DNA from: Patescibacteria group bacterium
Lineage (GTDB): Bacteria; Patescibacteriota; Patescibacteriia; Magasanikbacterales; UBA922
Reading direction: 5' to 3'
NCBI GenBank assembly: GCA_041651535.1
Contig: JBAZIZ010000003.1
Coordinates: 83,357-147,356, forward strand
DNA length: 64,000 bases
Shown piece after piece: positions 4,821 through 61,613 of the stretch. A program made the translations under genes and the position numbers. The stretch's first letter is position 1. Each line of letters starts with the position of its first letter. The notes beneath the pieces are model-generated. The model did no database searches. It was not told where the DNA came from and saw only the letters and a list, made by a program, of their open reading frames with translations.

Positions 4821-4862
4821 AAAAATTAGAAAAAAATCTAAAATCCTAAATTAGAAATCTAA

Positions 4863-4882
4863 CCTGCCTACCGGCAGGCAGG
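4863..4882. repeat. GC-rich palindrome CCTGCCTACCGGCAGGCAGG (copy 1), probable bidirectional terminator between convergent genes
   Basis: A 20-nt GC-rich hairpin in a ~27% GC background, sitting between the stops of convergent genes. The same 20-mer recurs at 17390..17409. Confidence 0.5.
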
Positions 4883-13500: not shown

Positions 13501-14919
13501 TTAAAGCGCTTTTCTTTTTTTAAACAAAACAAAAGGAGTTTTTATAAAAATTATTATATCTAAAAATAAACTCCAATTTTCAATATAAAAAATATCCAAT
13601 TTCATTTCTTCTTCAAAACTCAAATCACTTCGTCCAGAAATTTGTGACAAACCAGTAATTCCTGGTTTTAAAGTAAAAACTTTAGGAAAATTTTCTTTGT
13701 AATTGTCAACTTCGCGTGGTTGATGAGGACGTGGTCCAACTATACTCATCGTACCAAATAAAACATTAAAAAATTGTGGCAATTCATCAATACTTGTACG
13801 ACGAATAAATTTTCCTATTTTAGTAACACGAGGATCGTTTTGTATTTTATAAATTGGCCCGATTTTAGAATTATTTTTTGTAATCAATTCTTCTTCTTTT
13901 TTAAGTGCTTTTTCCCCTTCTTTTCCAAATTGAATTCCGGTTGAATCTTTTTGATACATTGATCTAAATTTTAAAGTGAAAAATTTTTTTTCTCTAATTC
14001 CTACTCTTTCATTTTTATAAATTATCGGTCGGCCAGTTTCAAAAAAAATTAAAACTGCCACCAAAAGCATAAGAGGTGAAGTAATAATTATAATAAAAAT
14101 ACTCATAATAACATCAAAAAATCTCTTTGCAACTCTTCCCCAAGCTTCCAAAGGTGTTTTTTTAATTTCTATTATTGGAACTCCTGCCAAAGGATTCATC
14201 ACAATATTATTTGAATATACTGAAAATAAATCAGCTGAATATTTAAAAACTAAATGATTCAGATTACAAAAATTCAAAGCTCGTAAAAATTGTTTTTCAT
14301 CTTTTTTTGAAGCTGCAAATATAATTTCATTTACTTCCAAAGATAAAATTTCCTTAGTATTTTTTTCATTAAATTCTGTTATTTTTTTGACTACTAAATA
14401 GCCAAGTTCTTTTCTTTTTTCTAAAATTTCACTCATTTTTTTTGTCATCTCATCATCACCGATGATAATCACTTTTCGCAAACCAACACCACTGCGATAT
14501 AAAATACTTTTTAAACCTCGTACAAATAAACGCCCAAAGAAAATATAAATTATTGAAAAAATATAAGTAAATAAAAATAAAAATCTTGAATCAAATAATT
14601 TTCCAGAAAATAAAATATATAAAGCAATAAAAGCCAAACAAACTGACAAAGCAAAAATAATTTTCATTAATTCAGCCGAAAATTTTCTATTTTGATTAAG
14701 AGAATATAAACCAAAAAAAGCAAAAATTAATAAAACTAAAAAAACTACGGGCATTAAAATACTTAAAAAATCAGTTAGAGTTAGTCCAAAAGACACAGAT
14801 TTTATTTTTAAAGCCCATTCGCTAAAACGAAAATAATAAGCTGAAATTCCAGCTAAAACTACCATGACAAAATCTAAAGGAACTTTTAAAATCATTAAAA
14901 AAATCTCAGATCTTTTCAT
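13501..14919 (-). CDS. Polyprenyl-phosphate glycosylphosphotransferase (bacterial sugar transferase, WbaP/CpsE-like priming enzyme)
   Basis: 472 aa with an N-terminal multi-TM region. The C-terminal catalytic domain carries the Pfam Bac_transf hallmarks ([51 protein letters not shown]). Confidence 0.85.
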
Positions 14920-15126
14920 AAAAAAATAATAAAATTGTATTTAATTATCTTTATCTTATCTAAAAATGGCTAAAAAGTCAAAGAATTTATGATTTATGAT
15001 TTATCATTTTAGAATTAAATTCAGAAGAAAATTAAAAAATTAAATATAATATATTAAAATAGCTAAAATAAGCTAAAAAATAAAATAAAACTTAATTCTT
15101 AAATCTAAAATCTAGAATTGTTTAAG

Positions 15127-15155
15127 TTGACAAAATAGCTAAAATATGCTATATT
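15127..15155 (+). promoter_or_regulatory. Consensus sigma70 promoter (TTGACA, 17 nt, TATATT) for rnpB
   Basis: TTGACA at 15127..15132, a 17-nt spacer, TATATT at 15150..15155. The conserved AT-rich upstream motif lies just 5' of the -35. Confidence 0.55.
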
Positions 15156-15161
15156 TTTATA

Positions 15162-15592
15162 GTCCTGTTCATTACAAGATAATCGCTCCAGTATTTACTG
15201 GTGAGGAAAGTCCGAACTTCAACCGTTTTAACGGAAAAATAGTGGCTAATGACCACCTAGAGAAATCTACGGGAAAGTGCCACAGAGACAATACTATCCC
15301 GACCAAGTCGGGAGAAAGGTGAAAAGTAAACAGGTGTTTAAAATAAAATTTACCGACAGCAGAGTCTGCAGACTCGGTTAAATAAATTTTTTGCTACTGT
15401 TTTCATTCTATGGTGACATAGAAACGTGGTAAACCCTATTTGAAGCAAGAACAGCGTTTTTCTCGACGTTAAGTCGAGATTTTCGAAAAGATAGTTCGCT
15501 AAAATTTAATAGCAATATTAAATTAAGATAAATGATTATCATTCCGATTTAGTCGGAATCACAAAATTCGGCTTATGAAATGAACGGGATAA
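15162..15592 (+). ncRNA. rnpB: RNase P RNA (bacterial M1 RNA)
   Basis: On the plus strand: a P3 hairpin (CCAGTATTTACTGG), the P4 5' strand GAGGAAAGTCCGAAC, GGGAAAGTGCCACAGAGA, an AGGTGAAAAG (GGUGAAA-like) block, and the P4 3' strand ACAAAATTCGGCTTA. A terminal helix pairs 15162-15175 with 15580-15589. Ends are approximate. Confidence 0.7.
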
Positions 15593-17389: not shown

Positions 17390-17409
17390 CCTGCCTACCG
17401 GCAGGCAGG
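17390..17409. repeat. GC-rich palindrome CCTGCCTACCGGCAGGCAGG (copy 2), probable terminator downstream of tRNA-Leu
   Basis: Identical 20-mer to 4863..4882. Flank AATTCCTGCC...GGCAGGTT resembles the reverse complement of the copy-1 flank, i.e. the same hairpin in opposite orientation. Confidence 0.5.
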
Positions 17410-17436
17410 TTGAATTTTGAATTTTGAATTTATTTG

Positions 17437-19218: not shown

Positions 19219-19827
19219 TTATTCTTTAATTCCATCTAAATTTACATCGTAAAGCATTTTTTCATTGACTAATTTATAACTCATAATTTCATCTTCTTTG
19301 AACCAAACTTTTATTTCTCTTTCAGCTTCACTTGGTTTATCAGAACAATGAATTAAATTTCTAACAGCACGTCCATCCATATTTGCTAATTCATAAGAAT
19401 CAAGAGTTAAATCACCACGAATTGTACCTACATCAGAACTAAGAGGTTCTGTTCCACCAACAATTTTTTTGATAATACCGACAGCTTGATTTCCTTCCCA
19501 AATCATCATCAAAAGTGGGCAACAAGTCAAAAAAGAAACATTACCACGTAAAATATCTCGTCCATATTCTAAAGCAGATTTTTCTATTGGTAATCCTGCT
19601 TTTGTTCTATTACTAACAGTAATTTGTCCTTTTTCTTCACACCAACGATCATCTTTATTATAATGACGCAAACATTGATCTTCTGTTGCTAAAGATAATT
19701 TCATAGCAATTAATTTTAAACCTGTTCTTTCAAGACGACCGATTATTTCACCAATCAAACTTCTTTGAATTCCATCTGGTTTGATGATAACAAAACTTTT
19801 TTCTTTTGTAGCTGTATTTAAGCCCAT
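19219..19827 (-). CDS. ndk: Nucleoside diphosphate kinase with ~50-aa internal insertion
   Basis: 202 aa. NDK motifs present: FVIIKPDGIQRSLIGEIIGRLERTGLKLIAMK, CPLLMMIWEG, GTIRGDL, NLIHCSD (active-site His). An extra segment lies between helix A and the Kpn loop region. Confidence 0.8.
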   Translation of the reverse strand: MGLNTATKEKSFVIIKPDGIQRSLIGEIIGRLERTGLKLIAMKLSLATEDQCLRHYNKDDRWCEEKGQITVSNRTKAGLPIEKSALEYGRDILRGNVSFLTCCPLLMMIWEGNQAVGIIKKIVGGTEPLSSDVGTIRGDLTLDSYELANMDGRAVRNLIHCSDKPSEAEREIKVWFKEDEIMSYKLVNEKMLYDVNLDGIKE

Positions 19828-19950
19828 ATTTTTAAATTTAAATAAATTATTTGTTTTTATTTTATACTTTTTAATTAGAAAGTCAAGCTATTTTAGAATT
19901 TAAATTCTGGATTTATGATTTATTTTAATTCTAAAATCTTAAATCCAAAA

Positions 19951-21957
19951 TCATAATTCATCTATACTTTTCAAAAAACTAGTACGTGGTCCATCTTCAC
20001 TTACATATCTAACATTATCAATATCATCGCTAGGATCAAAAAAATTTTCTGAAAAAGAATCAGAATCATTTTTAACTAAATTTAAATTTAATTCCTGTAA
20101 AAAAATACTTGGACCTGACATCGAAGCAAAAACACTGTTTACTGCAGGATAAGTTAAATATAAATATTTTTTTGCTCTTGTAATAGAAACATAAAAAAGT
20201 CTTCTTTCCTCTTCAAGTTCGGAAAAATTTTTAATACGATCACTCGGAAACATTCCTTGAGCTAAACCAATTATAAAAACGACATCCCATTCTAAACCTT
20301 TTGCCTGATGAATTGTACTTAAAATTATTTTGTCTTTTTTTGTAATTACATCTGAATTTTGTTCTCGATTATAACTTTCTTGCAAAGTTGCTTCTGCTAA
20401 GAATTCTTCCAAAGAATTATATTTTTCAGCAAAAAAAGCCATTTGTTTTAAATCTTCATTTCTTTCACGATAATCTTCATATTCAGATTCTAAATAATTT
20501 TGATAATTTGATTGCAAAATATTTTTAATTAAAATTGTTGGTTGATTTTTACTTACATCTTTTATTTTTTCAAAAATTTCCCAAAAATCTGTCCACCCTA
20601 AACCAGCTTTTGCACCAAGTAAATTTTTTACATCTTCATATTTTATAGAATCTTGTTTTTGAATAAAATCAATAATTTTAGTTGCCCCAGCTGGACCAAT
20701 GCCAGATTGCATATTTAAAATTCTTTGCCAAGCAGTCTCATCATTTTTATTATTTAAAATTTTTAAAAAAGCTAAAACATCTTTGACATGAGCTCGTTCA
20801 AAAAAACGAACACCACCACGAAAATCATAAACAATATTACGTCTAGAAAGTTCCATTTCTAAAGCTTGGGAATGAAAAGCAGCTCGGAATAAAACAGCGA
20901 TTTTATCCGGACTAATTCCCTCTTCTACAAATTCTAAAATTCTAGAGCTGATAAATTCAGCCTCTTCTTCATTATTAGCAAAAGCAGTTAATTCTGGGCG
21001 AGTAAAAAAATTTTGGACACTGACTAATTTTTTTTCGTATTGATAATTATTATTTTTTATAACATCATTTGCTAAATCCAAAATTTCTGGAGTCGAACGA
21101 TAGTTTGTTTCCAACTTAAAAACTTTTGCTTGTTTTTTTTCTTCAAAATCTAAAATATTTTTGATTTCAGCTGCACGAAATGAATAAATACTTTGAGCGT
21201 CATCACCAACAACTAATAAATTTTTATGAATACTAGATAGTTCTTCGATAATTAAAGCTTGAATTTTATTTGTATCTTGATATTCATCCACTAAAATATA
21301 ATGAAATTGCTCGGCAAGTTTATTTTTTATTTCTTTTTTTGTAAGCAAAAGCAAATATAAATTTGTTAGTAAATCATCAAAATCCATAACATTTGCTATC
21401 TTTTTTTTCTGATCATAAAGTGCAAAAACACTTACAATATCTTCTTTAAAATCAAGATAATTTGGATAATTTTTTTCTAAAATATTTTCAACAGTAGAAT
21501 TAGAATTTTTAGCATAACTAAAAATACTTTGCAAAACTTTTGGAGCAGGAAATTTTTTATAAGTACTCTTTATATTTTCAGTTTTTAAACAAAATTTAAT
21601 CAAATCACGTGAATCTTCACTGTCTAAAATTGAAAAATTATTTTGGTAACCAATCAGTGTAGAATATTTCAAAAGAATTTTATAAGCAATATGATGAAAA
21701 GTTCCCGCCCAAGGCATTTTTTTTTCTAAAGCATTTAATTTTACAATTCTTTGGGTCATTTCATCTGCAGCTTTATTTGTAAAAGTTAAAAGTAAAATAT
21801 TTTCTGGTTTAACTCCTTTTTCTAATAAATAAGCAACACGATAAGTAATTACTCTAGTTTTACCACTACCAGCTCCAGCTAAAACCAAAGAATATCCATC
21901 GCCATTTTGGATTATTTCCAGTTGTTCTTTATTTAGTTCTTTGGCAAAATCAATCAT
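19951..21957 (-). CDS. pcrA: ATP-dependent DNA helicase, UvrD/PcrA/Rep family
   Basis: 668 aa. Walker A LAGAGSGKTRVITYRVAYLL, motifs II-VI (VDEYQDTN, TNYRST, TIHQAKGLEWDVVF). Confidence 0.9.
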   Translation of the reverse strand: MIDFAKELNKEQLEIIQNGDGYSLVLAGAGSGKTRVITYRVAYLLEKGVKPENILLLTFTNKAADEMTQRIVKLNALEKKMPWAGTFHHIAYKILLKYSTLIGYQNNFSILDSEDSRDLIKFCLKTENIKSTYKKFPAPKVLQSIFSYAKNSNSTVENILEKNYPNYLDFKEDIVSVFALYDQKKKIANVMDFDDLLTNLYLLLLTKKEIKNKLAEQFHYILVDEYQDTNKIQALIIEELSSIHKNLLVVGDDAQSIYSFRAAEIKNILDFEEKKQAKVFKLETNYRSTPEILDLANDVIKNNNYQYEKKLVSVQNFFTRPELTAFANNEEEAEFISSRILEFVEEGISPDKIAVLFRAAFHSQALEMELSRRNIVYDFRGGVRFFERAHVKDVLAFLKILNNKNDETAWQRILNMQSGIGPAGATKIIDFIQKQDSIKYEDVKNLLGAKAGLGWTDFWEIFEKIKDVSKNQPTILIKNILQSNYQNYLESEYEDYRERNEDLKQMAFFAEKYNSLEEFLAEATLQESYNREQNSDVITKKDKIILSTIHQAKGLEWDVVFIIGLAQGMFPSDRIKNFSELEEERRLFYVSITRAKKYLYLTYPAVNSVFASMSGPSIFLQELNLNLVKNDSDSFSENFFDPSDDIDNVRYVSEDGPRTSFLKSIDEL

Positions 21958-26606: not shown

Positions 26607-27911
26607 ATGAATTTTGATCAAGCTTATAATTATCTTTTGTCTTTAAATAATTTACCACGGCAAGAATACATGAGAGACGGAAAAAAATGCGATTTATATT
26701 TACAAAGAATTCGCTTTTTTTTGAAATTAATTGGCAATCCCGAAAAAAAAATAAAAAATTATATCCACGTCACTGGTACTAGTGGCAAAGGATCAACCGT
26801 AACTTTTTTACATAATATTTTATTAGCTAATGGCAAAAAAGTTGCTTCTAGTTTGTCACCTCATCATATAATTATTACCGAACGTTGGAAAGTTGCTGAC
26901 AAAAATATGAGCAAAAAAGAATTTGTTGATATAATGAATTTTTTAAAACCAAAATTAGATGCTTATGTTCGTTTGAGTCCTTATGATATGTTATCTTTTT
27001 TTGAAATAACCGAAATTATTGGTTTTATTTTTTTTAGTCGCAAAAAAGTTGATTGGGCGATTTTAGAGGTTGGTTGCGGCGGACGATTTGATTCCAGTAA
27101 TATTATTCCGCATAAAAAAATAGCTGTGATTACTAATATTGGACTTGATCATCTTGGACTAATTGGTAATAACAAAGAAGAAATCGCTTATGAAAAATCA
27201 GGAATAATAAAAGCAAATTGTGAAGTTTTTACTAGTGAAAAAAATGAAAAGATTTTAAAAATAATTAAAAAAGAATGTCAAAAAAATAAAGTAAATTTAA
27301 ATATTATAAATAAATCTAAGTATAAAATAAAAAAACAAGAACTAGATTTTACAAAATTTACATATAAAAATAACAATTATCAAATAAATACTTTTGGCGA
27401 GCATCAAATAAACAATACTATTTTGACAATTGAAATTGCAAATTTTTTGAAACTTGATCCTGAAAAGACAAAAATAGGTCTTGAAAAAACAAAACAAAGT
27501 TTACGTTTAGAAATAATAAATAAAAATCCACTTATTATACTTGATGGAGCTCATAATCCTGACAAGATGAAAACAACAGTGAAAGCAATTAAAAAAAAGA
27601 ATAAAATAGTAAATTTAGTCGTTGGTTTTTCTGGCGACAAAAATATAGAAAATCAAATAAAACAGCTTTGTGAATTAAAATTAAAAAACGTAATTTTGAC
27701 TAGAAATACTAATAATATTTTTCGCAAAGTAGCTGATCCAAAATTTTTAGAACAAAAATTTAAAAAACAAAATCCAAAAATAAAAACTAAAATTTTTTTA
27801 GATCCAAAAGATGCTTATGACTTTGCAAAAAGTAAAACAAAGAAAGATAAAATTTTACTTGTTACTGGCAGTATTTTTTTGAGTGGAGAAATAAAAAAAT
27901 TTATAATTTAA
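26607..27911 (+). CDS. folC: Folylpolyglutamate synthase / dihydrofolate synthase (Mur ligase family)
   Basis: 434 aa. P-loop IHVTGTSGKGST, Mur-ligase middle domain, and DGAHNPD in the C-terminal domain. Confidence 0.75.
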   Translation: MNFDQAYNYLLSLNNLPRQEYMRDGKKCDLYLQRIRFFLKLIGNPEKKIKNYIHVTGTSGKGSTVTFLHNILLANGKKVASSLSPHHIIITERWKVADKNMSKKEFVDIMNFLKPKLDAYVRLSPYDMLSFFEITEIIGFIFFSRKKVDWAILEVGCGGRFDSSNIIPHKKIAVITNIGLDHLGLIGNNKEEIAYEKSGIIKANCEVFTSEKNEKILKIIKKECQKNKVNLNIINKSKYKIKKQELDFTKFTYKNNNYQINTFGEHQINNTILTIEIANFLKLDPEKTKIGLEKTKQSLRLEIINKNPLIILDGAHNPDKMKTTVKAIKKKNKIVNLVVGFSGDKNIENQIKQLCELKLKNVILTRNTNNIFRKVADPKFLEQKFKKQNPKIKTKIFLDPKDAYDFAKSKTKKDKILLVTGSIFLSGEIKKFII

Positions 27912-28099
27912 GAATTTAGATTTTAGAATTAAAAGAACACATCAGACAACTACATCGTAAATAAATTCATCTTTTTTCAGCACCCTTAAGTAAAGTTAAA
28001 TAAATTCATAATTCATAATTCCTAAATCATAAATCTAAAATCTTTACTTATTTGACATAATCCTCTTTTTATTTTATGCTGTAAAACATAAAAAATCTT

Positions 28100-30355: not shown

Positions 30356-30470
30356 TCGGTCTTCTTTGTGTAGCAAGAGAGCTAACCTAAATGCCTTTGG
30401 TAATAAAAAGGTGCTCTACTCGCTACATTGGACATTATAACAATAAACACAAAAAAATCAAGACAAAAAG

Positions 30471-32625: not shown

Positions 32626-32769
32626 ATGCCTACAAAGAAAAAAGCTGTAAAAAAAGTTGCTAAGAAAAAAGTTGCTAAGAAAAAAGTAGCAAAAAAAGCA
32701 GTTAAGAAAGTTGCTAAGAAAAAAGTAGCAAAAAAAACTGCTAAGAAAAAAGTTGCTAAGAAAAAATAG
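32626..32769 (+). CDS. Small Lys/Ala-repeat basic protein (47 aa), histone H1/Hc1-like nucleoid-associated protein candidate; absent from supplied ORF track
   Basis: Strong SD AAAAGGGGTGA 6 nt before ATG 32626. Sequence is MPTKKKAVKKVAKKKVAKKKVAKKAVKKVAKKKVAKKTAKKKVAKKK*. A terminator follows. Confidence 0.55.
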   Translation: MPTKKKAVKKVAKKKVAKKKVAKKAVKKVAKKKVAKKTAKKKVAKKK

Positions 32770-38279: not shown

Positions 38280-39278
38280 ATGGTTTTACTTTTTAAACAT
38301 AAAATGATAAAATTAAAATGTATGACCGAAAAAGAAGGAATTCTACAACTCCAAAAATCTTTTGGCATTAATCCTATTTTTTCTAGGATAATTTTTGATA
38401 AAATAAAAAAAGATAATTTAATAGAAGACGCTGCAAAGATTATTGCAGAAAGACCAAAACCTTTTGTAAAATGGGTTGGAGGAAAACGCCAACTTTTAAA
38501 ACAATTTAAAGAGCTTGGATTATATCCTCCAGATGAATTTAATCCTTTAAAACACACTTATTTTGAGCCTTTTGTTGGTGGTGGGGCTGTATTTCTTGAT
38601 TTATTACCAAAAAATGCGGTTATTTCTGATTTAAATTCCGATCTCATTACGACTTATAAAGTAGTTAAAAATGATGTTGAAAAATTGATAAAATTATTAA
38701 AAACATATAAATATAGTAAAGATTTCTTTTTAAAAATTAGAAGTCAAAAATCTTCTAGTCTTTCTGAAATTCAAATCGCGGCGAGATTTATTTATTTAAA
38801 CAGAACTTGTTTTAATGGCTTGTATAGAGTTAATAGCAAGGGAGAATTTAATGTTCCGTTTGGAAAATACAATAATCCACTTATTTGTGATGAAGATAAT
38901 TTAAAAAAAATATCCAAAGCTCTAAAAAATGTAAAAATTTATAATGAAGACTATAAAAATGTTTTAAAAAGATCTAAAAAAGGAGATTTTATTTATTTTG
39001 ATCCTCCTTATTATCCAATAAACAAAACTTCATCATTTACTTCTTACACCTCAAAGGAATTTTTAGAAAAAGAACAATTGGAACTCAGAGATACCTTTTT
39101 AGAATTACACAGAAGGGGTTGCTTTGTGATGCTTTCAAATTCTAACACTCCTTTTATAAATAAAATTTATTCTGATTTTAAAGGGATTAAAATTAATAAA
39201 ATAGAAGCAAACAGAAATATAAATTCTAAAGCTTCGGGAAGAGGCAAAATAAAAGAAGTTTTAATCATTAATTATTAA
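38280..39278 (+). CDS. Dam-family DNA N6-adenine methyltransferase (GATC-type, MboIA/DpnM-like)
   Basis: 332 aa. KWVGGKRQLL, EPFVGGGAVF (motif I), IYFDPPYYP (motif IV). Confidence 0.85.
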   Translation: MVLLFKHKMIKLKCMTEKEGILQLQKSFGINPIFSRIIFDKIKKDNLIEDAAKIIAERPKPFVKWVGGKRQLLKQFKELGLYPPDEFNPLKHTYFEPFVGGGAVFLDLLPKNAVISDLNSDLITTYKVVKNDVEKLIKLLKTYKYSKDFFLKIRSQKSSSLSEIQIAARFIYLNRTCFNGLYRVNSKGEFNVPFGKYNNPLICDEDNLKKISKALKNVKIYNEDYKNVLKRSKKGDFIYFDPPYYPINKTSSFTSYTSKEFLEKEQLELRDTFLELHRRGCFVMLSNSNTPFINKIYSDFKGIKINKIEANRNINSKASGRGKIKEVLIINY

Positions 39279-39285
39279 TTTTTAT

Positions 39286-40143
39286 ATGAAAAAAGATTTT
39301 AACAAACTAACAAACACATTCAAAAGTTCAATTAAAACCTGGGATTATTTTGTAAACTGGGAGAAGGTTTTCTTAAACAAATCAGAATTAGAAATAACTC
39401 TTAATAAACTAAATTATTTACTAGGTAAAGACAATTTAAAAGATGAATTTAAAAAACTTTTTATCTCTAATCCTGATATTATAAAAGCTTTTCCTGTATT
39501 ATTAGCTGTCAGAGATAATAAACTTGAAGTATTTGACAAGGTGACAAAAAATTCTGAGTTTTTTGATTTTTCGCAAACAGATAAAAACTATGAAAAGTAT
39601 TTTTTATTCCTTAAAAATTCTGGACTTGATAAACTTTTTCAAAAAGACGGAATTAAAAATCTTGTTGATTATGTAATGGGGGTTGAAGTTGGGCTTGATA
39701 GTAATGGTAGAAAAAACCGAGGAGGTTCATTAATGGAAGAAATAGTTGAATCTTTTATTTCTGATTTTTGTAAAAATAAAGGGTTTGAATATGCTACTCA
39801 AGCTAGGTCTAGTGCAATAAAAAGTAAGTGGGGTGTAAATGTAAAAATAAATAAATCAGAAAGAAGTTTTGATTTTGCTATTTATAATCCTAAAAGTAAA
39901 AAGATTAAATTGTTTGAAACAAATTTTTATAATGGGGGTGGTTCAAAACTAAAAGCAGTTTGCGGGGAATTTAAAAGTCTTTATACAGAACTTAAAGAAC
40001 AAAGTATAGATTTTATTTGGATAACTGATGGCTTAGGTTGGTTTACAGCCAAAAGACCTCTTGAAGAAACATATAATCATAACGAATACATTTTTAATTT
40101 GAATATGCTTGGGGAAGGAATTTTGAATGAATTAAAATGGTAA
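39286..40143 (+). CDS. Type II restriction endonuclease, DpnII/MboI family (GATC)
   Basis: 285 aa. Blocks LVDYVMGVEVGLDSNGRKNRGG, FDFAIYNPKSKKIKLFETNFYNGGGSKLKAV and FIWITDGLGWFTAKRPLEETY match my recollection of DpnII-family REases. Confidence 0.8.
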   Translation: MKKDFNKLTNTFKSSIKTWDYFVNWEKVFLNKSELEITLNKLNYLLGKDNLKDEFKKLFISNPDIIKAFPVLLAVRDNKLEVFDKVTKNSEFFDFSQTDKNYEKYFLFLKNSGLDKLFQKDGIKNLVDYVMGVEVGLDSNGRKNRGGSLMEEIVESFISDFCKNKGFEYATQARSSAIKSKWGVNVKINKSERSFDFAIYNPKSKKIKLFETNFYNGGGSKLKAVCGEFKSLYTELKEQSIDFIWITDGLGWFTAKRPLEETYNHNEYIFNLNMLGEGILNELKW

Positions 40144-40149
40144 ATTCTT

Positions 40150-40899
40150 ATGGCCAACAAAAAACAGAGACTTCATCCTGATAATTTTGAAATGGAGTGT
40201 ACCACTGTTTGGTCGTTTCCACGACGCGGTAATTGGGCGACACATAAATCGGATTGGAGAGGAAATTGGGCACCTGAAGTAGTGCGCAATTTAATTTTAC
40301 GTTATTCAAAAGAAAAAGATCATTTATTAGACTGTATGATTGGCGGTGGAACGACTGCTATTGAAGCAAAAATTTTAAATAGACATATCACCTGTGTTGA
40401 TATTAATGAACAAGCTGTCAAAAGAACGATAGAATCATTAAAATTTGAAATAAATAATAAAGCAAAACAAAGAATTGTAAAATGTGATGCAAGAAAAATG
40501 GATTTTATTAAAAATAATGAAATTGATTTTGTTCTCACCCATCCCCCTTACGCAGACATAATAAAATATAGTAATGGAAAAATAAAAGAAGATCTTTCCA
40601 ATATTCACGACATAGATGAATTTGTAAATCAAACTGGATTAGTAGCAAAAGAACTTTACAGAGTTTTAAAATCAGGAAAATTTTGTGCGATTTTAATTGG
40701 AGATACTCGCAGAAATAAAATGTATCAACCAATTGCTTTCCGAGTGATGGCTGAATTTATTAAAGTTGGTTTTAAATTAAAAGAAGACATAATAAAAAAA
40801 CAACACAATTGCAAAGCAACTGGTTTTTGGGTTAATAAGTCAAAAGAATTAAATTTTTTACTAATAATGCACGAACATTTATTTATTTTTCAAAAGTAA
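40150..40899 (+). CDS. Second DNA methyltransferase of the cassette (DpnA/MboIC-like N6-adenine MTase)
   Basis: 249 aa. Motif I LDCMIGGGTTAIEA and motif IV FVLTHPPYADI. Gene order M-R-M matches the mboA-mboB-mboC arrangement. Confidence 0.7.
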   Translation: MANKKQRLHPDNFEMECTTVWSFPRRGNWATHKSDWRGNWAPEVVRNLILRYSKEKDHLLDCMIGGGTTAIEAKILNRHITCVDINEQAVKRTIESLKFEINNKAKQRIVKCDARKMDFIKNNEIDFVLTHPPYADIIKYSNGKIKEDLSNIHDIDEFVNQTGLVAKELYRVLKSGKFCAILIGDTRRNKMYQPIAFRVMAEFIKVGFKLKEDIIKKQHNCKATGFWVNKSKELNFLLIMHEHLFIFQK

Positions 40900-41374: not shown

Positions 41375-41548
41375 GACAATTCAATAAAAAAATTTATTCA
41401 GAGTGCAGTTAGGGAACTAGCCCGATGACCTGCCGACAACCTATCTCAAAAAAGACAAGGTGCCAATTCTAGCCCAAAAGGGGAAGATAAAAAATGTTTT
41501 TTGTTTTTAGTAAAAATATCTTTCCCAACAGGAAAGATTTTATTTTTC
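41375..41548 (+). ncRNA. Unidentified small RNA or cis-regulatory leader (~175 nt)
   Basis: Runs from the consensus promoter to an intrinsic terminator (ATCTTTCC-CAACA-GGAAAGAT + T-run, 41516..41548). Contains locally GC-rich segments (AGGGAACTAGCCCGATGACCTGCCGAC, GACAAGGTGCC, TAGCCCAAAAGGGG) and no ORF. Ends about 70 nt before the next CDS. Confidence 0.4.
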
Positions 41549-41620: not shown

Positions 41621-42004
41621 ATGAAAAAAACTTTAGCCGAAATAGAAAACTGGGCAACTAAACTCACTGCCACACAAATAGACCAATTACCAGAAGAAGA
41701 AATAATCGAATATATAATGGAAAGACCTGGACATCCAGGACAATATGGTTTTATGTTAGGACCTGAATCTTTTAAATCAATAGAAGAATTTTCAACTATA
41801 TTTTCCGCTCTAATGAACAGATTAAATAAAATAGAAAATTTAGAAAATAAAATGACTAGTAATAAAGAAAAAACTGAGATCAACTTAGTAAGTTTGCAAA
41901 ATTATCTTCAAGGAAGAAAATGGGAGGAATTAACGAAGGAAGAACAACTAAACATATCTGGGGAAATATTAAAAATGATATTCCCAAACTTACCGAAGAA
42001 ATAA
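41621..42004 (+). CDS. Hypothetical protein (127 aa)
   Basis: Longest ORF in the region. The antisense ORF 41599..41883 looks compositionally spurious. No SD and no recognised family. Confidence 0.4.
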   Translation: MKKTLAEIENWATKLTATQIDQLPEEEIIEYIMERPGHPGQYGFMLGPESFKSIEEFSTIFSALMNRLNKIENLENKMTSNKEKTEINLVSLQNYLQGRKWEELTKEEQLNISGEILKMIFPNLPKK

Positions 42005-42076
42005 ATAAAAAATAATTTTTTGACTTTCTTTAATTTGTGTCATAAAATATAAGTATAATAAAAAAATAAAAATTAT

Positions 42077-42499
42077 ATGAAAATTAGATCTGCAAATAAA
42101 TCGGACATGAAAAATGTTGAAAAATTATTGAATTTACCAGAATTAAAAATGGCAACAGGTGAAAATATTTCTGCTAAAATACTATCCAAATATTTAGATA
42201 AAAAATTTTTTTTAGTAGCTGAAGAAAACAAAGAAATTATTGGTACTGTTATGGGAGAAAGATTAAAAAATGGTGGTTTATCTCTCTGGTATCTTGCCGT
42301 TAAAAAAGATGCAAGAGAAAAAGGTGTGGGGTCAGCATTAATTGATAAAATTGAAAAAAATATGATTTCTGAAAAAAAAGATTGGATAATCTTATACGCA
42401 CCAATAAAAAATCAAAAAACTATACGATTTTATAAAAAAAGAGGTTACAATAAAGGAATAACTCACGTTGAATTTTTAAAATATTTAGACAAAAAATAA
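42077..42499 (+). CDS. GNAT-family N-acetyltransferase
   Basis: 140 aa. Acetyl-CoA binding motif REKGVGSALIDKIE (Q/RxxGxG/A) and a C-terminal RFYKKRGY. Confidence 0.75.
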   Translation: MKIRSANKSDMKNVEKLLNLPELKMATGENISAKILSKYLDKKFFLVAEENKEIIGTVMGERLKNGGLSLWYLAVKKDAREKGVGSALIDKIEKNMISEKKDWIILYAPIKNQKTIRFYKKRGYNKGITHVEFLKYLDKK

Positions 42500-42556
42500 A
42501 ATAATCTTTTTATTATTTAAAAATTCCTAAATCTGAAATTAAAAATCTAAAATCTT

Positions 42557-43522
42557 ATGTCTCTTAAAAAAAATTTAATAAATTTTTTAGAATATCTCGA
42601 AATAGAAAAAAATCGCAGTCCAAAAACTGTGGAAAATTATAATTTTTATTTAGGTCGTTTTATTGAATGGTTTGGTGACAAATCTGCTGACGCTATAAAA
42701 TCTGAAGATGTTCGTCAATATCGTTTATGGTTAAACAGACTGGTTGATGTTCATGGCGAAGCTCTTAAAAAAAATACACAAAATTATCATCTTATCGCTT
42801 TACGATCTTTTTTGAAATATTTATCAAAACAAGACGTTGAAACTTTAGCTCCAGAAAAAATTGAACTTATGAAAATGCCAGACAGACAGGTGGACTTTTT
42901 AGACAACAGTGATTTAAACAGAATTTTAGAAGCACCGTTTAAAAATATAAATAAAAAAAAATTAGAAGAAGAAGGAGAAAAAAAAGGAATGTCCGCTACT
43001 TTACTCATTGCTTACCGTGATAAAGCTCTTTTGGAACTTTTGTTTTCTACAGGACTTCGTGTTTCCGAAGCTGCCAAATTAAAAAAAACTGATATAAATC
43101 TTAATCGCGATGAATTTACAGTTAGAGGAAAAGGAATGAAAAGTCGTATCGTATTTTTGTCTGAACAAGCAAAATATTTTTTAAAAAAATATTTGGAAAT
43201 CCGTGCTGATATGAATCCACATCTTTTTATTTCTCATGACAAAAGAACAAAAAAAGAAGACAATGATTCTTTTTTAACTCCACGATCTATCGAAAGAATT
43301 GTCCAAAAACATGCACGAGAAGCTGGAATTACAAAAACTGTCACTCCACACACACTTCGCCATTCTTATGCGACTGATTTGTTACAAAATGGTGCTGATA
43401 TCCGAAGCGTCCAAGCGATGCTCGGTCATTCTTCTATTACCACTACTCAAATTTACACTCACATTACAGACAAAGAATTACGAAACATTCACAAAAAATT
43501 TCATGACAAAGGAAGAAAGTAA
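42557..43522 (+). CDS. xerC: Tyrosine recombinase, XerC/XerD family
   Basis: 321 aa. N-terminal SAM-like domain. C-terminal catalytic R..HxxR..Y is intact: HTLRHSYATDLL...GHSSITTTQIYTH. Confidence 0.85.
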   Translation: MSLKKNLINFLEYLEIEKNRSPKTVENYNFYLGRFIEWFGDKSADAIKSEDVRQYRLWLNRLVDVHGEALKKNTQNYHLIALRSFLKYLSKQDVETLAPEKIELMKMPDRQVDFLDNSDLNRILEAPFKNINKKKLEEEGEKKGMSATLLIAYRDKALLELLFSTGLRVSEAAKLKKTDINLNRDEFTVRGKGMKSRIVFLSEQAKYFLKKYLEIRADMNPHLFISHDKRTKKEDNDSFLTPRSIERIVQKHAREAGITKTVTPHTLRHSYATDLLQNGADIRSVQAMLGHSSITTTQIYTHITDKELRNIHKKFHDKGRK

Positions 43523-43560
43523 AACGATTTTAGATTCTAGAATTTGGATTTTAGAATTAA

Positions 43561-43595
43561 AAAACCTTGTCTAAATTTTAGATAAGGTTTTTTGT
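43561..43595 (+). terminator. Rho-independent terminator after xer (copy 1 of a duplicated terminator module)
   Basis: AACCTTGTCTA-AATTTT-AGATAAGGTT + TTTTTG. A near-identical module occurs at 57598..57631. Confidence 0.6.
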
Positions 43596-43647
43596 TTAAA
43601 ACTTTTTTTTAAAAATAATTCTAAAATCTTAAATCATAAATCTAGAA

Positions 43648-44385
43648 TTATTTGTTTCCTATTTTTTCAAAAGCTCGCAAAATTTCAAGTGGAATTGCAA
43701 AAATAACTGTATTTGATTGATCAGAACTTAAATCATTTAAAGTATTTAAAGTACGAAGATGCAAAGCGCCATCTTGTGAGCTCAACATTTTAGCTGCAAT
43801 TGCTAATTTTTCAGCAGCAATAACTTCACCTTCAGATTTTATAATCACTGCTCTTTTTTCTCTTTCGGCTTCTGCTTGTTTAGCAATCACTCTTTGCATA
43901 TCATCAGGTAAAATTACATCTTTAAGTTCTACACCATTTACTTTTATTCCCCATGGATCTGTCGCTTCATCAACTATTTCTTTGATTCTTTTTGCTGCTT
44001 GTTCTCGATTCGCTAAAAGTTCATCAAGTTCAAGCTCACCAACCACATTTCTCATAGTAGTTTGCGCAAGTTGGCTAACTGCATACCAAAAATTTTCTAC
44101 TTCTAAAATTGCTTTAGAGGCATCGGAAACTTGATAATAAATTACTGCATTAATTTTTGCTGAAACATTATCTTTGGTAATTGCCTCTTGCAATGGAACA
44201 TCTACCGCTTTGACACGAATATCTACTTTTGTCATACTCTGAATAATTGGAAAAACTAATCTCCAACCTGGTTCAATCATGCCAGAATATTTTCCTAAAG
44301 TAAATTTTACTCCTCTTTGATATTGATTTACCTGTTTAATACTTACTAAAAGTAAAACAAGCAAAACAATTAAAAAAACTTCCAT
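43648..44385 (-). CDS. SPFH/band-7 (stomatin/prohibitin-like) membrane protein
   Basis: 245 aa. N-terminal TM and an SPFH core (YQRGVKFTLGKYSGMIEPGWRLVFPIIQSMTKVDIRVKAVDVP). Confidence 0.8.
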   Translation of the reverse strand: MEVFLIVLLVLLLVSIKQVNQYQRGVKFTLGKYSGMIEPGWRLVFPIIQSMTKVDIRVKAVDVPLQEAITKDNVSAKINAVIYYQVSDASKAILEVENFWYAVSQLAQTTMRNVVGELELDELLANREQAAKRIKEIVDEATDPWGIKVNGVELKDVILPDDMQRVIAKQAEAEREKRAVIIKSEGEVIAAEKLAIAAKMLSSQDGALHLRTLNTLNDLSSDQSNTVIFAIPLEILRAFEKIGNK

Positions 44386-44581
44386 AAAATTAAATCATTT
44401 TTATAAAAACTAGATGGCTAGTTATAATTAAGTTTAGATTATATAGAGATAATTGTCAAAATTATCTAATCGAAAGTTACGTTATTAATAAAATTTTATT
44501 AATAACATGTCTTTCGACATTTAACTTTAGACATTCGACTCTTCTATGGTATACTAAAATAAATAATTAGATAAATTTTTT

Positions 44582-56010: not shown

Positions 56011-56143
56011 ACTGGCAAACAAATTTTAGAATATTGTATATTTGTCTTTGGACATTTGACTTTGTCTGTGTTATAATAAATAAGTTGAAAAAAACAAAAA
56101 CCTGTCAATTAATGGTTTTTTTATTTGCTTAAAAATTAAAAAT

Positions 56144-57597: not shown

Positions 57598-57631
57598 AAA
57601 ACCTTGTTTAATGTTTTAGACAAGGTTTTTT
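57598..57631 (+). terminator. Rho-independent terminator after guaB (copy 2 of duplicated terminator module)
   Basis: AACCTTGTTTA-ATGTTT-TAGACAAGGTT + TTTTTAT. Shares ~50 nt of similarity with 43561..43612. Confidence 0.6.
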
Positions 57632-57729
57632 ATTTAAAACTTTTTTAAAACATGACTTTCGATATTTGATTTTCGACATTTGACTATTTTTTGTGATATA
57701 ATAATCCTATAATTACTAAATAATTGTTT

Positions 57730-58825: not shown

Positions 58826-60811
58826 TTACTTCAAAAGTCCAATAATAAGTAAAGCAACAATGTTTGCAACTTTAATCATTGGATTAATTGCAGGTCCTGC
58901 TGTGTCTTTATAAGGATCACCAACAGTATCTCCTGTTACAGCTGCTTGATGAGCAAAACTTCCTTTTCCACCATAATTTCCATTTTCAATATATTTTTTT
59001 GCGTTATCCCAAGCTCCACCACCAGTAGTCATAGAAACTGCCACAAACAAACCAGTTACGATTGTACCAACTAAAAGACCGCCGAGCGCAGCTGGACCAA
59101 AAAATACACCAACTAAAATAGGAATAAGAACTGGAATAAGTGCAGGCAAAATCATTTGTCCGATTGCTCCTTTTGTTACAATATCTACACATTTAGCATA
59201 ATCAGGTTTTGCTTGTCCTTCCATAATTCCATGAATTTCTCTAAATTGTCTGCGAACTTCTTCAACAACTTTTCCAGCAACTTTTCCTACAGATTCCATT
59301 AAAAGAGAACCAAACAAATAAGGTAAAAGTCCACCGATAAATAAACCAGCTAAAACTTTTGGATCATCAATTCTAAAAATAGTATCAATTCCATTATCAG
59401 CTAATTTATGAGTATAATCTCCAAATAAAACTAAAGCAGCAAGAGCAGCACTGGCAATCGCGTAACCTTTTGTTACAGCTTTTGTAGTATTTCCAACTGC
59501 ATCTAAAGCATCGGTAGTTTTTCTTACATCTTCTCCGAGTTCGCTCATTTCAGCGATTCCACCCGCATTGTCAGTAATTGGACCATAAGCATCAATAGTC
59601 ACCACAATTCCAGTCAAAGAAAGCATGGCCATAGCTGCAATCGCAATTCCATAAAGACCAGCCATATTATATGAAATCAAAATTCCAATCACAATCGCCA
59701 AAACAGGCAAAGCTGTAGATTTCATTGAAACTGCTAAACCAGTAATTACATTTGTACCATGTCCTGTTTCACTAGCTTTGGCAATTTGTTTTACTGGTTT
59801 ATGTTTAGTAGAAGTATAATATTCAGTTATCCAAAACATAAGTCCAGTAAGAGCAATTCCTACAAAAGCTGGCCAAAACAATTCTGATCTAGTTAAACCT
59901 AATTGTGGGGCATAAGTTTTTATTGCAAAATAAAAACCAATAAGAGATAAAATTGCTGAGACAAATAAACCTTTATACAAAGCTCCCATGATTCTGTTTT
60001 TCTTTCCTAATTTAATAAAGAAAGTTCCGATGATAGAAGCAATGATTGAAATTCCACCAATAACTAGTGGAAGCATTATTCCAGCATCAGTATTTTTGAA
60101 TGTTAAAAATCCTAAAACTATAGCAGCAACAGCTGTCACAGCATAAGTTTCAAATAAATCAGCTGCCATACCAGCACAATCACCGACATTGTCACCAACA
60201 TTATCCGCAATTACAGCTGGATTTCTTGGATCATCTTCTGGAATATTTTTTTCAACTTTACCAACCAAATCAGCACCAACATCAGCAGCTTTAGTAAAAA
60301 TACCACCGCCGATACGAGCAAAAATTGAAATCAAACTTCCTCCAAAAGCTAAACCTATCAAAGCATGAACATCTTTGGTAATTAAATAAAATGAAGTAAC
60401 ACCCAAAAGTCCTAAACCAACAACTAATAAACCAGTCACAGTTCCTCCTTTTACAGCAACTTCCAAAGCTTGTTTCATACCTTTTTTAGCTGCTTCGGTT
60501 GTTTTTACATTAGCTTTGACAGAGATATTCATACCTACAAAACCAGCAATACCCGAAAATACTGCTCCAAGTAAAAAACCTAAAGCTGTAGTCCAATCAA
60601 TAAAAAAACCCAATAAAACAAATACTAAAACTGCCACATAAGAAATAGTCTTATATTGACGAGCTAAGTAAGCTTTTGAACCTTCTTGAATAGCACGTGC
60701 AATGTTTTGCATACGTTCGTCTCCAGAAGGTTGTTTTCCGATCCAATAGATCAAGAAAATACCATAAGCAATTGCTAAAATTGCTGGTAAAATAAGAAGA
60801 AATGATGACAT
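58826..60811 (-). CDS. hppA: Membrane-bound H+/Na+-translocating pyrophosphatase
   Basis: 661 aa, 15-16 TM. Signature [18 protein letters not shown] and DNAGGIAEM. Confidence 0.9.
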
Positions 60812-60896: not shown

Positions 60897-61006
60897 AAGC
60901 CTAATTTTAGATTTAAGATTATAGATTTTAGAATTATTTTCTATAAAAAAATAATTCGTCAGTTGGCGGACATAATTCATAAATCAAAAATCTTAAATTA
61001 TTTTAC

Positions 61007-61061: not shown

Positions 61062-61613
61062 ATGAAACCTGCTTTAATTATAATTGATTTACAAGAAGAT
61101 TTTTTTAAGGATAAATTTTTGGCTAAAAAAAGAAAAAAAATATCCAACTCTGTAAATAAATTAGTTAAAATTGTTCGCTCTAAAAAAATACCCATAATCT
61201 GGGTTAAACAAGAATATGAGAACGATCTTTCTGACGCACCACTTTATAATAGAAAAAATAAAAAAAAGATAACCATAAAAAATACTAAAGGTTGCCAATT
61301 TTTGTCTGAGCTTGATTATAATGAAAAAGATTTTTTAATTATCAAAAAAAGATTTAGTGCTTTTTTTAAAACTGATTTAGAAAAATTACTTAAAAAAATA
61401 AAGATCGATACCCTTATTATAGCTGGAATAAATACTATGTCTTGCGTAAGAACCACGGCAATAGATGCTTATCAAAGAGATTATGACGTTATTCTTGATT
61501 TAGATGCCACGACTGCTTATGACACAAAACAACATAAAAATTCAATTGAATATTTAAAACACGCAGTTGCTAAAATAATGGACACTAAAGAAATAATAAG
61601 TTTATTAAAATAA
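61062..61613 (+). CDS. Isochorismatase-family cysteine hydrolase (PncA/YcaC-like)
   Basis: 183 aa. PALIIIDLQEDF (catalytic Asp), K residue, and Cys in LIIAGINTMSCVRTTAIDA. Confidence 0.7.
   Translation: MKPALIIIDLQEDFFKDKFLAKKRKKISNSVNKLVKIVRSKKIPIIWVKQEYENDLSDAPLYNRKNKKKITIKNTKGCQFLSELDYNEKDFLIIKKRFSAFFKTDLEKLLKKIKIDTLIIAGINTMSCVRTTAIDAYQRDYDVILDLDATTAYDTKQHKNSIEYLKHAVAKIMDTKEIISLLK

Follow-up and report, generated by a model that had tools for sequence, protein, structure and literature searches.

The question raised by this locus is what the short AT-rich blocks are that recur between the genes of a 64,000-nucleotide stretch of the genome of a Patescibacteria group bacterium (GCA_041651535.1, contig JBAZIZ010000003.1), referred to here as the window. 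A first-pass annotation had described them as a dispersed promoter-proximal element lying just upstream of -35 boxes, and had offered three identities: an UP element specific to the lineage, the binding site of a global factor, or the remnant of a miniature inverted-repeat transposable element (MITE). The blocks were found to be tandem arrays of a 7-bp unit. They lie at the outer edges of intergenic regions, mostly in divergent pairs, with their tails touching the delimiter of the neighboring gene unit. We regard them as very probably a Patescibacterial member, from a genome near Magasanikbacteria, of the STRR/LSSR class of heptanucleotide tandem arrays. Such arrays have been reported repeatedly, with no mechanism attached.

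The window has a GC content of about 27%, and its TopA is 65% identical to Magasanikbacteria proteins and 74% identical to those of its closest uncultured relatives. The window is part of a 97-kb metagenomic contig (ENA ERZ27247363 k141_2061524). The source genome was covered over 84 kb and other genomes as fragments, and open reading frames (ORFs) in the retrieved loci were assigned by a plain longest-ORF criterion. The gene names given earlier were right: rnpB, by an Rfam match, ndk, a UvrD-like helicase, topA, xer, an H+-pyrophosphatase and an isochorismatase.

Each block consisted of in-register tandem heptads with the unit consensus A-A-W-T-C-N-W, mostly five of them (about 35 bp). The position weight matrix (PWM) built from 56 units had A at position 1 in 51/56, A at position 2 in 56/56, A or T at position 3 in a ratio of 40:16, T at position 4 in 56/56 and C at position 5 in 46/56, followed by N and W, and the 35-bp array consensus was AATTCTAAAATCTTAAATCATAAATCTAGAATT. 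Twelve such arrays, designated family 1, were located across eight intergenic regions; they held four to six units each, and five was the mode (8/12). Clusters reaching at least 18 bits over four units numbered 12 in the window, whereas 20 dinucleotide-preserving shuffles averaged 0.1 and never exceeded 1. The degenerate four-unit pattern AAWTCNWAAWTCNWAAWTCNWAAWTC matched six times in the window and not once in 100 shuffles. A self-similarity scan that assumed no unit detected eight period-7 segments, compared to zero for a period of 6 or 8. All 12 strong arrays were intergenic.

Every block reported by the first-pass annotation was recovered in the sequence, dispersed and in both orientations, together with one at 4834-4861 that had been overlooked. 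The family is genuine and non-genic, as had been stated. With 12 arrays against 0-1 in shuffles, chance does not account for it. A general 7-nt periodicity of the intergenic DNA was also considered and rejected, as no such periodicity was found in intergenic DNA from which the arrays had been removed. Because the AAWTC core is built into the family-1 PWM and into the search patterns, the conservation of that core across genomes is partly circular; the period-7 and polarity results given below for other heptamer families are free of this circularity.

The arrays were ordered internally. An AATTC cap unit (AATTCTA) was followed by about three AAATCNW internal units and a degenerate AAATTNN tail. 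T occupied position 3 in 10/12 cap units compared to 6/46 of the other units (p = 8e-6), and the tail unit tended to lose the C at position 5 (p = 0.001). The five-base core plus two or three variable positions was kept in each unit, even where all five units differed at positions 6-7. The forward strand of the arrays was almost free of G (11 in 406 nt). Adjacent units resembled each other no more than random pairs did (p = 0.32), which leaves the window arrays without a signature of recent slippage, and a strain from a second sample had arrays identical to those of the window. Ongoing slippage was rejected on these two grounds.

The cap-to-tail direction ran outward from the intergenic center in 12/12 arrays. 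All five array pairs were divergent, with spacers of 5, 38, 58, 70 and 72 bp that were mutually unrelated, scoring below shuffled controls. The tail abutted a -35 box in six arrays, a stop codon in five and a start codon, that of xer, in one.

The six promoter-facing arrays ended at distances (d) of 0, 0, 4, 5, 7 and about 6-13 nt before the -35 box. At 14982-15016 (minus strand), the units AATTCTA, AAATGAT, AAATCAT, AAATCAT and AAATTCT ran up to the TTGACT -35 box of a sugar-transferase operon (13501-14919, minus; d = 0). Its neighbor at 15094-15121 (plus; AATTCTT, AAATCTA, AAATCTA and GAATTGT) lay upstream of the rnpB promoter (TTGACA at 15127-15132, then TATATT; rnpB at 15164-15592; d of about 6-13). 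The five-unit array at 19887-19921 (minus) placed its tail at the TTGACT -35 box of ndk (19219-19827, minus; d = 0), and the six-unit array at 28003-28044 (plus) ended 7 nt 5' of the topA -35 box (TTGACA, 28052-28057). Five units at 60901-60935 (minus) left a gap of 4 nt to the promoter of the H+-pyrophosphatase gene hppA (58826-60811, minus), a perfect TTGACA-17-TATAAT. Four units at 60974-61001 (plus) stopped 5 nt short of a -35-like box, TTGATT, belonging to the isochorismatase gene (61062-61613).

At the stop codons, which belong to genes on the strand opposite to the array, d was +13, +1, -4, -11 and -16. The first-listed array of the window, at 4834-4861 (plus; AAATCTA, AAATCCT, AAATTAG and AAATCTA), lay between convergent genes and next to a GC-rich palindrome at 4862-4881. 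At 19927-19961 (plus), the units AATTCTA, AAATCTT, AAATCCA, AAATCAT and AATTCAT overlapped the end of the UvrD-like helicase gene (19951-21957, minus) by 11 nt of tail; this array forms a divergent pair with the ndk array across a 5-bp spacer. The five-unit array at 27896-27930 (minus) overlapped the stop of a folC-like gene (26607-27911, plus) by 16 nt. Around xer, one five-unit array at 42522-42556 (plus) ended exactly at the ATG (42557; d = 0), and a second at 43524-43558 (minus) started its tail 1 nt past the stop codon. The partner of the latter at 43617-43651 (plus, five units) overlapped the stop of a Band-7 gene (43648-44385, minus) by 4 nt of tail, and the two flanked a bidirectional terminator hairpin. 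A doubtful short array of three AATTCAA units was noted at 17410-17430 (minus).

The arrays were then compared with those of relatives, for which the syntenic contigs come from organisms with a 74% identical TopA. In the folC-topA spacer, contig L151 kept a divergent family-1 pair with a tail abutting TTGACA, and L146 retained the stop-proximal array alone. Contig L148 had divergent pairs at the corresponding positions of both the folC-topA and the ndk-uvrD spacers, built from another heptad (NACTTTT / GACATTC). All three contigs conserved the promoter and leader of topA. Contig L154, whose Xer is 87% identical, had the same three arrays around xer. Thus the same intergenic positions were occupied in the window and in L146, L148, L151 and L154 while the sequence or number of units differed.

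The three orthologous arrays around xer in the window and L154 were 80-86% identical, with five units each and no indels, while the four-fold-like third codon positions of xer were only 45% identical. A2 and T4 were never changed (0/40 sites) over four orthologous array comparisons, between the window and L154 or L146. With this identity retained where synonymous sites are near saturation, the arrays are being actively kept, whether through selection or through continued copying. At the same time they are locally dispensable, as contigs L155 and L156 (Xer 84% and 77% identical) had no arrays and 10/14 strong promoters of the window have none. A TopA-based search of GTDB representative genomes found nearest relatives of 51-56% identity that had no arrays, a distance too great to be informative. 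Xer itself, whose gene has inverted arrays exactly at its two ends, was considered as a recombinase that mobilizes the repeats and was rejected; it is 70-87% identical across Magasanikbacteria, as a housekeeping protein would be, and L155 and L156 encode it without arrays.

The array upstream of xer abutted a TTGACT-17-TAAAAT promoter in L154, whereas its ortholog in the window touches the ATG. We also observed that this L154 promoter, with its leader, is homologous to the window promoter upstream of a GNAT acetyltransferase gene (42077-42499). In the window (42005-42556) the GNAT gene sits between that promoter and the array plus xer, compared with positions 500-634 of L154, which looks like a local rearrangement or a gene insertion.

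These comparisons bear on the promoter-proximal element of the first-pass annotation. Its observation that the motif ends just before a -35 box stood for six arrays, which do lie at about -40 to -60 of a promoter, and failed for the other six, five being at stop codons and one at the xer ATG. A stringent scan placed 14 strong sigma-70-like promoters before genes. Four of them had a family-1 array just upstream (six promoters if two weaker ones are counted) and ten had none, including a perfect-consensus tRNA promoter; the arrays are therefore not promoter-specific. Judged from sequence comparison, they are not tied to the promoter, since the topA promoter was conserved where the arrays had been switched (L148) or had lost a member (L146).

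A lineage-specific UP element, or a class-I activator site at -40 to -60 in contact with the alpha-CTD, would account for the A/T-rich arrays that end 0-13 nt upstream of a -35 hexamer and for the -35 box continuing the heptad register in 5/8 cases, relatives counted. UP elements follow a consensus of A/T tracts without a conserved G/C (Estrem/Gourse), have no 7-bp period and are specific to promoters. The arrays differ in each respect, with a C at position 5 of 46/56 units, a strict 7-bp period and half of their members away from any promoter, and one orthologous array is found at a -35 box in L154 and at an ATG in the window. Outside the window and its relatives, where all counts given here and below refer to the matches listed, TTGAYW occurred ahead of 9 and behind 13 of 178 arrays, so there was no -35 enrichment. 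An UP element is thus very unlikely.

Three of the ten array-less strong promoters carried a second period-7 family over the -35 box, in each case on the plus strand. These were located at 44509-44543 (gene 44582, YibE/F), 56044-56071 (gene 56144, IMPDH) and 57654-57688 (gene 57724, 2-hydroxyacid dehydrogenase). As examples, the units read GTCTTTC, GACATTT, AACTTTA and GACATTC, or GACTTTC, GATATTT, GATTTTC, GACATTT and GACTATT. They look like tandem -35 hexamers plus one base, and it is this family that takes the place of the AAATC arrays at the orthologous spacers in L148.

Arrays of the same kind were then searched for in other genomes. Viral contigs were scanned with a degenerate four-unit pattern and metagenomes with the more specific AATTCTAAAATCNWAAWTCNWAAWTC. 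Among the matches listed, viral contigs of 37-67% GC carried many dispersed arrays with an AAATC core, one of them having 11 arrays in 14 kb at 63% GC. The phage arrays shared the orientation of the downstream ORF, leaving 0-12 nt to its ATG and in most cases no Shine-Dalgarno sequence; some were paired divergently, and the reverse array then overlapped the upstream stop codon. Two related, syntenic phages (L108 and L035, IMG/VR) had arrays before orthologous genes with units that differ, of the AAATCGT type in one and the AATTCTT/AACTCTT type in the other. Keeping the position while changing the unit is the same behavior as was seen among the Patescibacteria relatives.

The metagenome scan gave at least 119 loci of 25-60% GC. 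About 24 of them were taken as cyanobacterial because of their HIP1 density (4-18 per 10 kb), and these HIP1-rich contigs showed the unit series AATTCTA AAATCTA ... in the same divergent-pair layout. The metagenome loci with several arrays encoded housekeeping enzymes. Arrays of period 7 numbered 272, compared to 3-15 at every other period, and fell into 88 heptamer families in 743 kb, pooled over the 119 loci and many genomes. Some of these families have STRR2- and STRR3-like units, compared with the STRR units reported by Mazel et al. (1990). Two related cyanobacterial contigs (L244 and L205) differed in unit number by 7-nt steps, with 13 and 9 units.

Of the 180 family-1 arrays from other genomes, 10 (5.6%) lay inside ORFs. 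Five units were present in 79/180 and four to six in 84%. The tail was nearer to an ORF boundary than the cap in 106/124 arrays (p = 2e-16), with median distances of 7 nt for the tail and 124 nt for the cap. Within 10 nt ahead of the tail there were 46 opposite-strand stop codons and 24 co-oriented start codons; the stop codon usually fell within the tail unit (d = -4 to +1), and start codons lay 1-9 nt beyond it. Neighboring arrays were divergent in 19 cases, tandem in nine and convergent in none, and 26% of arrays had a divergent partner within 200 nt. Among the other heptamer families with at least three arrays, 8/9 were fully polar, and the strand pointing into the ORF usually had more C than G.

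Such a distribution can be read as that of a self-propagating, REP/REPIN-like extragenic repeat, spread by recombination, slippage or a mobilizing enzyme, which persists only in the harmless space between gene units and whose effects on neighbors are incidental. REP, BIME and REPIN sequences are short extragenic repeats that often form inverted pairs, often lie near stop codons, and occur as several lineage-specific families per genome. Their units are palindromic and linked to RAYT transposases, and some have been exapted for mRNA stability, termination or protein binding. A selfish origin would fit the fast turnover around kept promoters (the switch in L148, the lost pair member in L146, the absence in L155 and L156), an orthologous array on different sides of a promoter in the window and L154, and the 13 versus 9 units of the cyanobacterial contigs. 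Several families coexist and one unit recurs in very different taxa and phages; small GC-rich hairpins occur as inserts within or beside arrays; and a compact genome forces any intergenic insert against functional boundaries.

However, the window units are direct heptads rather than imperfect palindromes, and only the array pairs are complementary to each other. No transposase or RAYT-like gene was found in the 84 kb, where the sole gene tightly flanked by arrays is the conserved, housekeeping-type recombinase gene xer. There were no target-site duplications, the cores are unrelated, and the window arrays lack a signature of recent duplication. The length and core kept at fixed positions over saturating synonymous divergence speak against such a repeat, and the strict polarity toward ORF ends, with 19:0 divergent to convergent neighbors, would need an extra explanation. 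A selfish repeat, though less likely than not, is a serious rival account.

The inverted pairs with TTCTAGAA-like junctions in intergenic regions had suggested MITE remnants with the two arrays as terminal inverted repeats. This identity is hardly credible. The longest word shared by the flanks was at most 4 nt, which is the chance level, so target-site duplications are absent, and the spacers of 5-72 bp bear no relation to each other. In addition, the most conserved unit, the cap, is on the inside and the tips are the most degenerate, which is the reverse of transposon ends.

Folding of the pairs gave a divided result. Pairs 2, 4 and 5 formed long hairpins (z = -2.9 to -7.3), and the array pair around the xer terminator lengthened that hairpin; pairs 1 and 3 folded no better than shuffles (z = -1.2 and -0.3). 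The hairpin was therefore rejected as a selected feature, since two of five pairs do not fold beyond shuffles and the arms are only as complementary as the likeness of their units leads one to expect, a complementarity that L154 does not preserve.

The folding bears on a role at the RNA level, in which the AAAUC strand would serve as a G-poor, unstructured 5' leader free of start codons for Shine-Dalgarno-independent initiation (through S1, a Csp-like protein or scanning), and the GAUUU strand as a 3' trailer, the pair forming an intercistronic hairpin that stabilizes, terminates or is processed by RNase III. Arrays of phages and other bacteria that end 1-9 nt before an ATG without a Shine-Dalgarno sequence, or begin in an opposite-strand stop codon, agree with this, as do the layout on both sides of xer in the window, the three folding pairs with the extended xer terminator, and the C-over-G bias of the ORF-pointing strand in other families. 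An RNase III gene is present on the contig, and transcript stability, translational coupling and translational regulation have been proposed for such repeats in the literature (PMC2670836; PMC4679880). On the other side, 6/12 window arrays lie upstream of well-placed promoters, that of rnpB fitting the mature 5' end, and so are not in a 5' UTR (untranslated region); the other five that are not at xer's ATG run antisense into the 3' ends of genes, which are not sites of translation start. The two non-folding pairs, arm complementarity that stays at the level of unit similarity and is not preserved in L154, and the divergent partner found within 200 nt for only 26% of arrays elsewhere also speak against it, and an Rfam scan of 42450-43750 gave no match at E <= 1. 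An RNA-level function, though likewise less likely than not, is a serious rival as well.

Heptanucleotide arrays have been catalogued since 1990, when the cyanobacterial STRRs were recognized, and among long simple repeats of bacteria they are the class most over-represented; we know of no function or reader demonstrated for any of them. The STRRs are described as 7-bp repeats, often able to form hairpins, that are located close to where the gene before them ends, their 'function still not known' (PMC2670836). The window arrays resemble them in their tandem 7-bp units in many intergenic regions, hairpin potential and inverted copies, and differ in host (Patescibacteria, 27% GC) and in being short, imperfect and divided into a cap, a body and a tail. 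Perfect arrays of variable length are frequent in cyanobacteria, whereas those of the window lack recent slippage.

TAACTGA repeats occur in Beggiatoaceae, Cyanobacteria and Bacteroidetes as mostly intergenic sets of two to six heptamers (MacGregor 2015, PMC4679880). Their phylogenetic distribution is scattered; the sets lie forward, a few nt before start codons with few Shine-Dalgarno sites, and occasional reverse sets come right after stop codons (PMC4679880). The unit differs from that of family 1. In the window this start-codon layout is found at xer alone, and six arrays lie upstream of promoters; with AAATC-type units it is widespread in the phage and other contigs.

The same layout is seen in the class-3 repeats of Geobacter metallireducens, eight pairs of opposite-strand sites at variable spacing with five tandem MTYCTGA heptanucleotides per site, which were annotated as predicted binding sites of an unidentified global regulator (PMC2700814). 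About five heptads, opposite-strand pairs at variable distance, and a dispersed, intergenic and lineage-specific occurrence are common to both; the unit and the phylum differ. The GGGAATC arrays of Xanthomonas and GGGGAYT arrays of Nostoc are intergenic, sometimes form inverted pairs, lie between the same gene pairs in related species and vary extensively in length and sequence, and heptamers are the over-represented class of simple sequence repeats (PMC4692102). These are G-rich and able to form quadruplexes, whereas the window arrays are G-poor on the forward strand.

Tandem TTTTGAT heptads are reported to lie just upstream of, and to overlap, the -35 box of the Vibrio cholerae ctxAB promoter, where they recruit transcriptional regulators at a single locus (bioRxiv 10.1101/2021.05.14.444153). 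Their reverse complement gives AAATCAA, a unit also seen in the window; they are closest to the second family (GAYNTTY), and their orientation to the promoter is opposite to that of family 1.

To our knowledge, the only experimentally established reader of contiguous heptads is omega. In this protein (ParB of pSM19035), one ribbon-helix-helix (RHH) dimer binds each WATCACW heptad, at least four contiguous units are required, and the arrays overlap promoters (PMC9499535). The window arrays share with its sites the contiguous, non-palindromic heptads, the minimum of four units and an ATC core (AATCACA compared to AATCATA and AATCTAA). Omega arrays hold 7-10 units in mixed orientations at six plasmid sites with the cognate gene nearby, whereas the family-1 arrays have direct units only, occur on the chromosome and in phages, and follow AAWTCNW rather than WATCACW.

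The first-pass annotation had offered the binding site of a global factor as one identity, and this is now the best guess as to mechanism. We propose, with a probability of roughly one in three, that a cooperatively binding protein may read the arrays as cis elements in 7-nt register and thereby mark or insulate the edges of gene units. The proposal draws on the core-plus-spacer build of the units, their contiguous number of four to six, the presence of a cap and a tail, the polarity, and a conservation that stands out from saturated synonymous sites. The Geobacter metallireducens sites, with their matching layout, had independently been annotated as bound by a regulator (PMC2700814), which counts in its favor. 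From the periodicity, polarity, placement and conservation observed here we infer protein binding, a possible class of protein and an insulating effect. One putative protomer or dimer would occupy each heptad cooperatively, as omega does on at least four WATCACW heptads. Since the arrays point toward their gene units, arrays occupied by the protein would set off or insulate the edge of the unit, for example by limiting transcription across the boundary or by organizing the local DNA; they would not activate the adjacent promoter. The four to six contiguous units with a mode of five, both in the window and elsewhere, agree with omega's need for at least four. The internal structure is not like that of a microsatellite, and array positions are conserved in relatives even where the unit family has been switched (L148).

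Several observations weigh against a cooperative binder. No RHH or other obvious binder was found in a Pfam scan of 20 window proteins together with precomputed Pfam hits over the 84 kb, and an all-against-all BLASTP of the array-rich viral loci, which are partial contigs, gave no protein family common to them. The 88 coexisting heptamer families, if they coexist within single genomes, would require many specificities or a sequence-tolerant reader. The arrays are absent from L155 and L156 and from 10/14 strong promoters, and their units are all direct while omega sites mix orientations. Finally, arrays elsewhere that precede a start codon by 1-9 nt and lack a Shine-Dalgarno sequence, or that start inside a stop codon, fit an RNA-level role equally well.

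Several other features were noted beside the arrays. The GC-rich palindrome CCTGCCTACCGGCAGGCAGG is present in two copies in the 27% GC window (4862-4881 and 17391-17410), each directly beside a heptad array; the second abuts the doubtful array at 17410-17430, with a tRNA gene adjacent. The orthologous folC-side array of L151 is interrupted by a small GC hairpin of different sequence, TCCGCGAACTGGCGGA. These hairpins are reminiscent of very small mobile hairpin elements. A terminator module of about 55 bp (AAAAAACCTTGTYTAA..TTTTAGAYAAGGTTTTTT.TTTAAAACTTTTTT) also has two copies, one between the xer-flanking arrays (43560-43616) and one without arrays (about 57610-57665). On the contig upstream of the window (L277, 19456-19476), a three-unit array (AAATCCA, AAATCAT and AAATCGT) lies between two same-strand tRNA genes, in forward orientation and 16 nt 5' of the downstream tRNA.

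Four further features were noted. A 47-codon ORF at 32626-32769 (plus), rich in Lys, Ala and Val with KKVAKKK repeats and a 15-nt DNA periodicity (TRF), is a gene call in the source record and has a Shine-Dalgarno-like GGGGTG upstream; its product is a candidate histone-H1-like or Hc-like DNA-binding protein. The topA-gmk spacer (30370-30440) and L151 (3330-3400) share a conserved non-coding segment of about 60 nt (GTAGCAAGAGAGCTAACC...GGTGCTCTACTCGCTAC) with hairpin potential and a terminator downstream. Its Rfam matches were sub-threshold and terminator-like only, and it may be an unannotated small RNA. A SAM-I riboswitch (41391-41493, plus) lies upstream of a 127-aa ORF (41621-42004) without a Pfam match, and the same riboswitch is found at the start of L154. 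A DpnII-type (GATC) restriction-modification cluster at 38280-40899 encodes a Dam-like methyltransferase, the DpnII endonuclease and a second N6/N4 methyltransferase.

The present results extend the class of heptanucleotide arrays to the Candidate Phyla Radiation and to phages, with a unit series, AATTCTA AAATCTN ..., common to genomes of 25-67% GC. They also constrain any mechanism, which has to accommodate the polarity to ORF ends, the divergent-only pairing (19:0) and the maintenance of five units at fixed sites. For annotation they carry a caution, as touching a -35 box in a compact genome is not sufficient to call an UP element or an operator.

A broader and quite speculative possibility, which we hold to be improbable, is that heptanucleotide arrays are a 'gene-unit boundary' signal shared across phyla by Patescibacteria, cyanobacteria, other bacteria and phages. 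Each family would have a fixed polarity, with the strand richer in C running into the adjacent ORF, from inside a stop codon or to a few nt before a start codon. The 7-nt-register reader might belong to a conserved class of factor, such as a cooperative RHH or OB-fold protein, or, in lineages with Rho, the array could be a rut-like loading track with one YC per heptad, and the edges of gene units would thereby be closed, in both directions, to untranslated or antisense transcription. Another option is base pairing, in cis or in trans, between complementary arrays in 5' leaders and 3' trailers, which could then act after transcription as 'address codes' specific to each family. If a boundary signal of this kind were true, a Patescibacterium with a tiny genome and two heptad families would be a minimal natural system for finding the reader.

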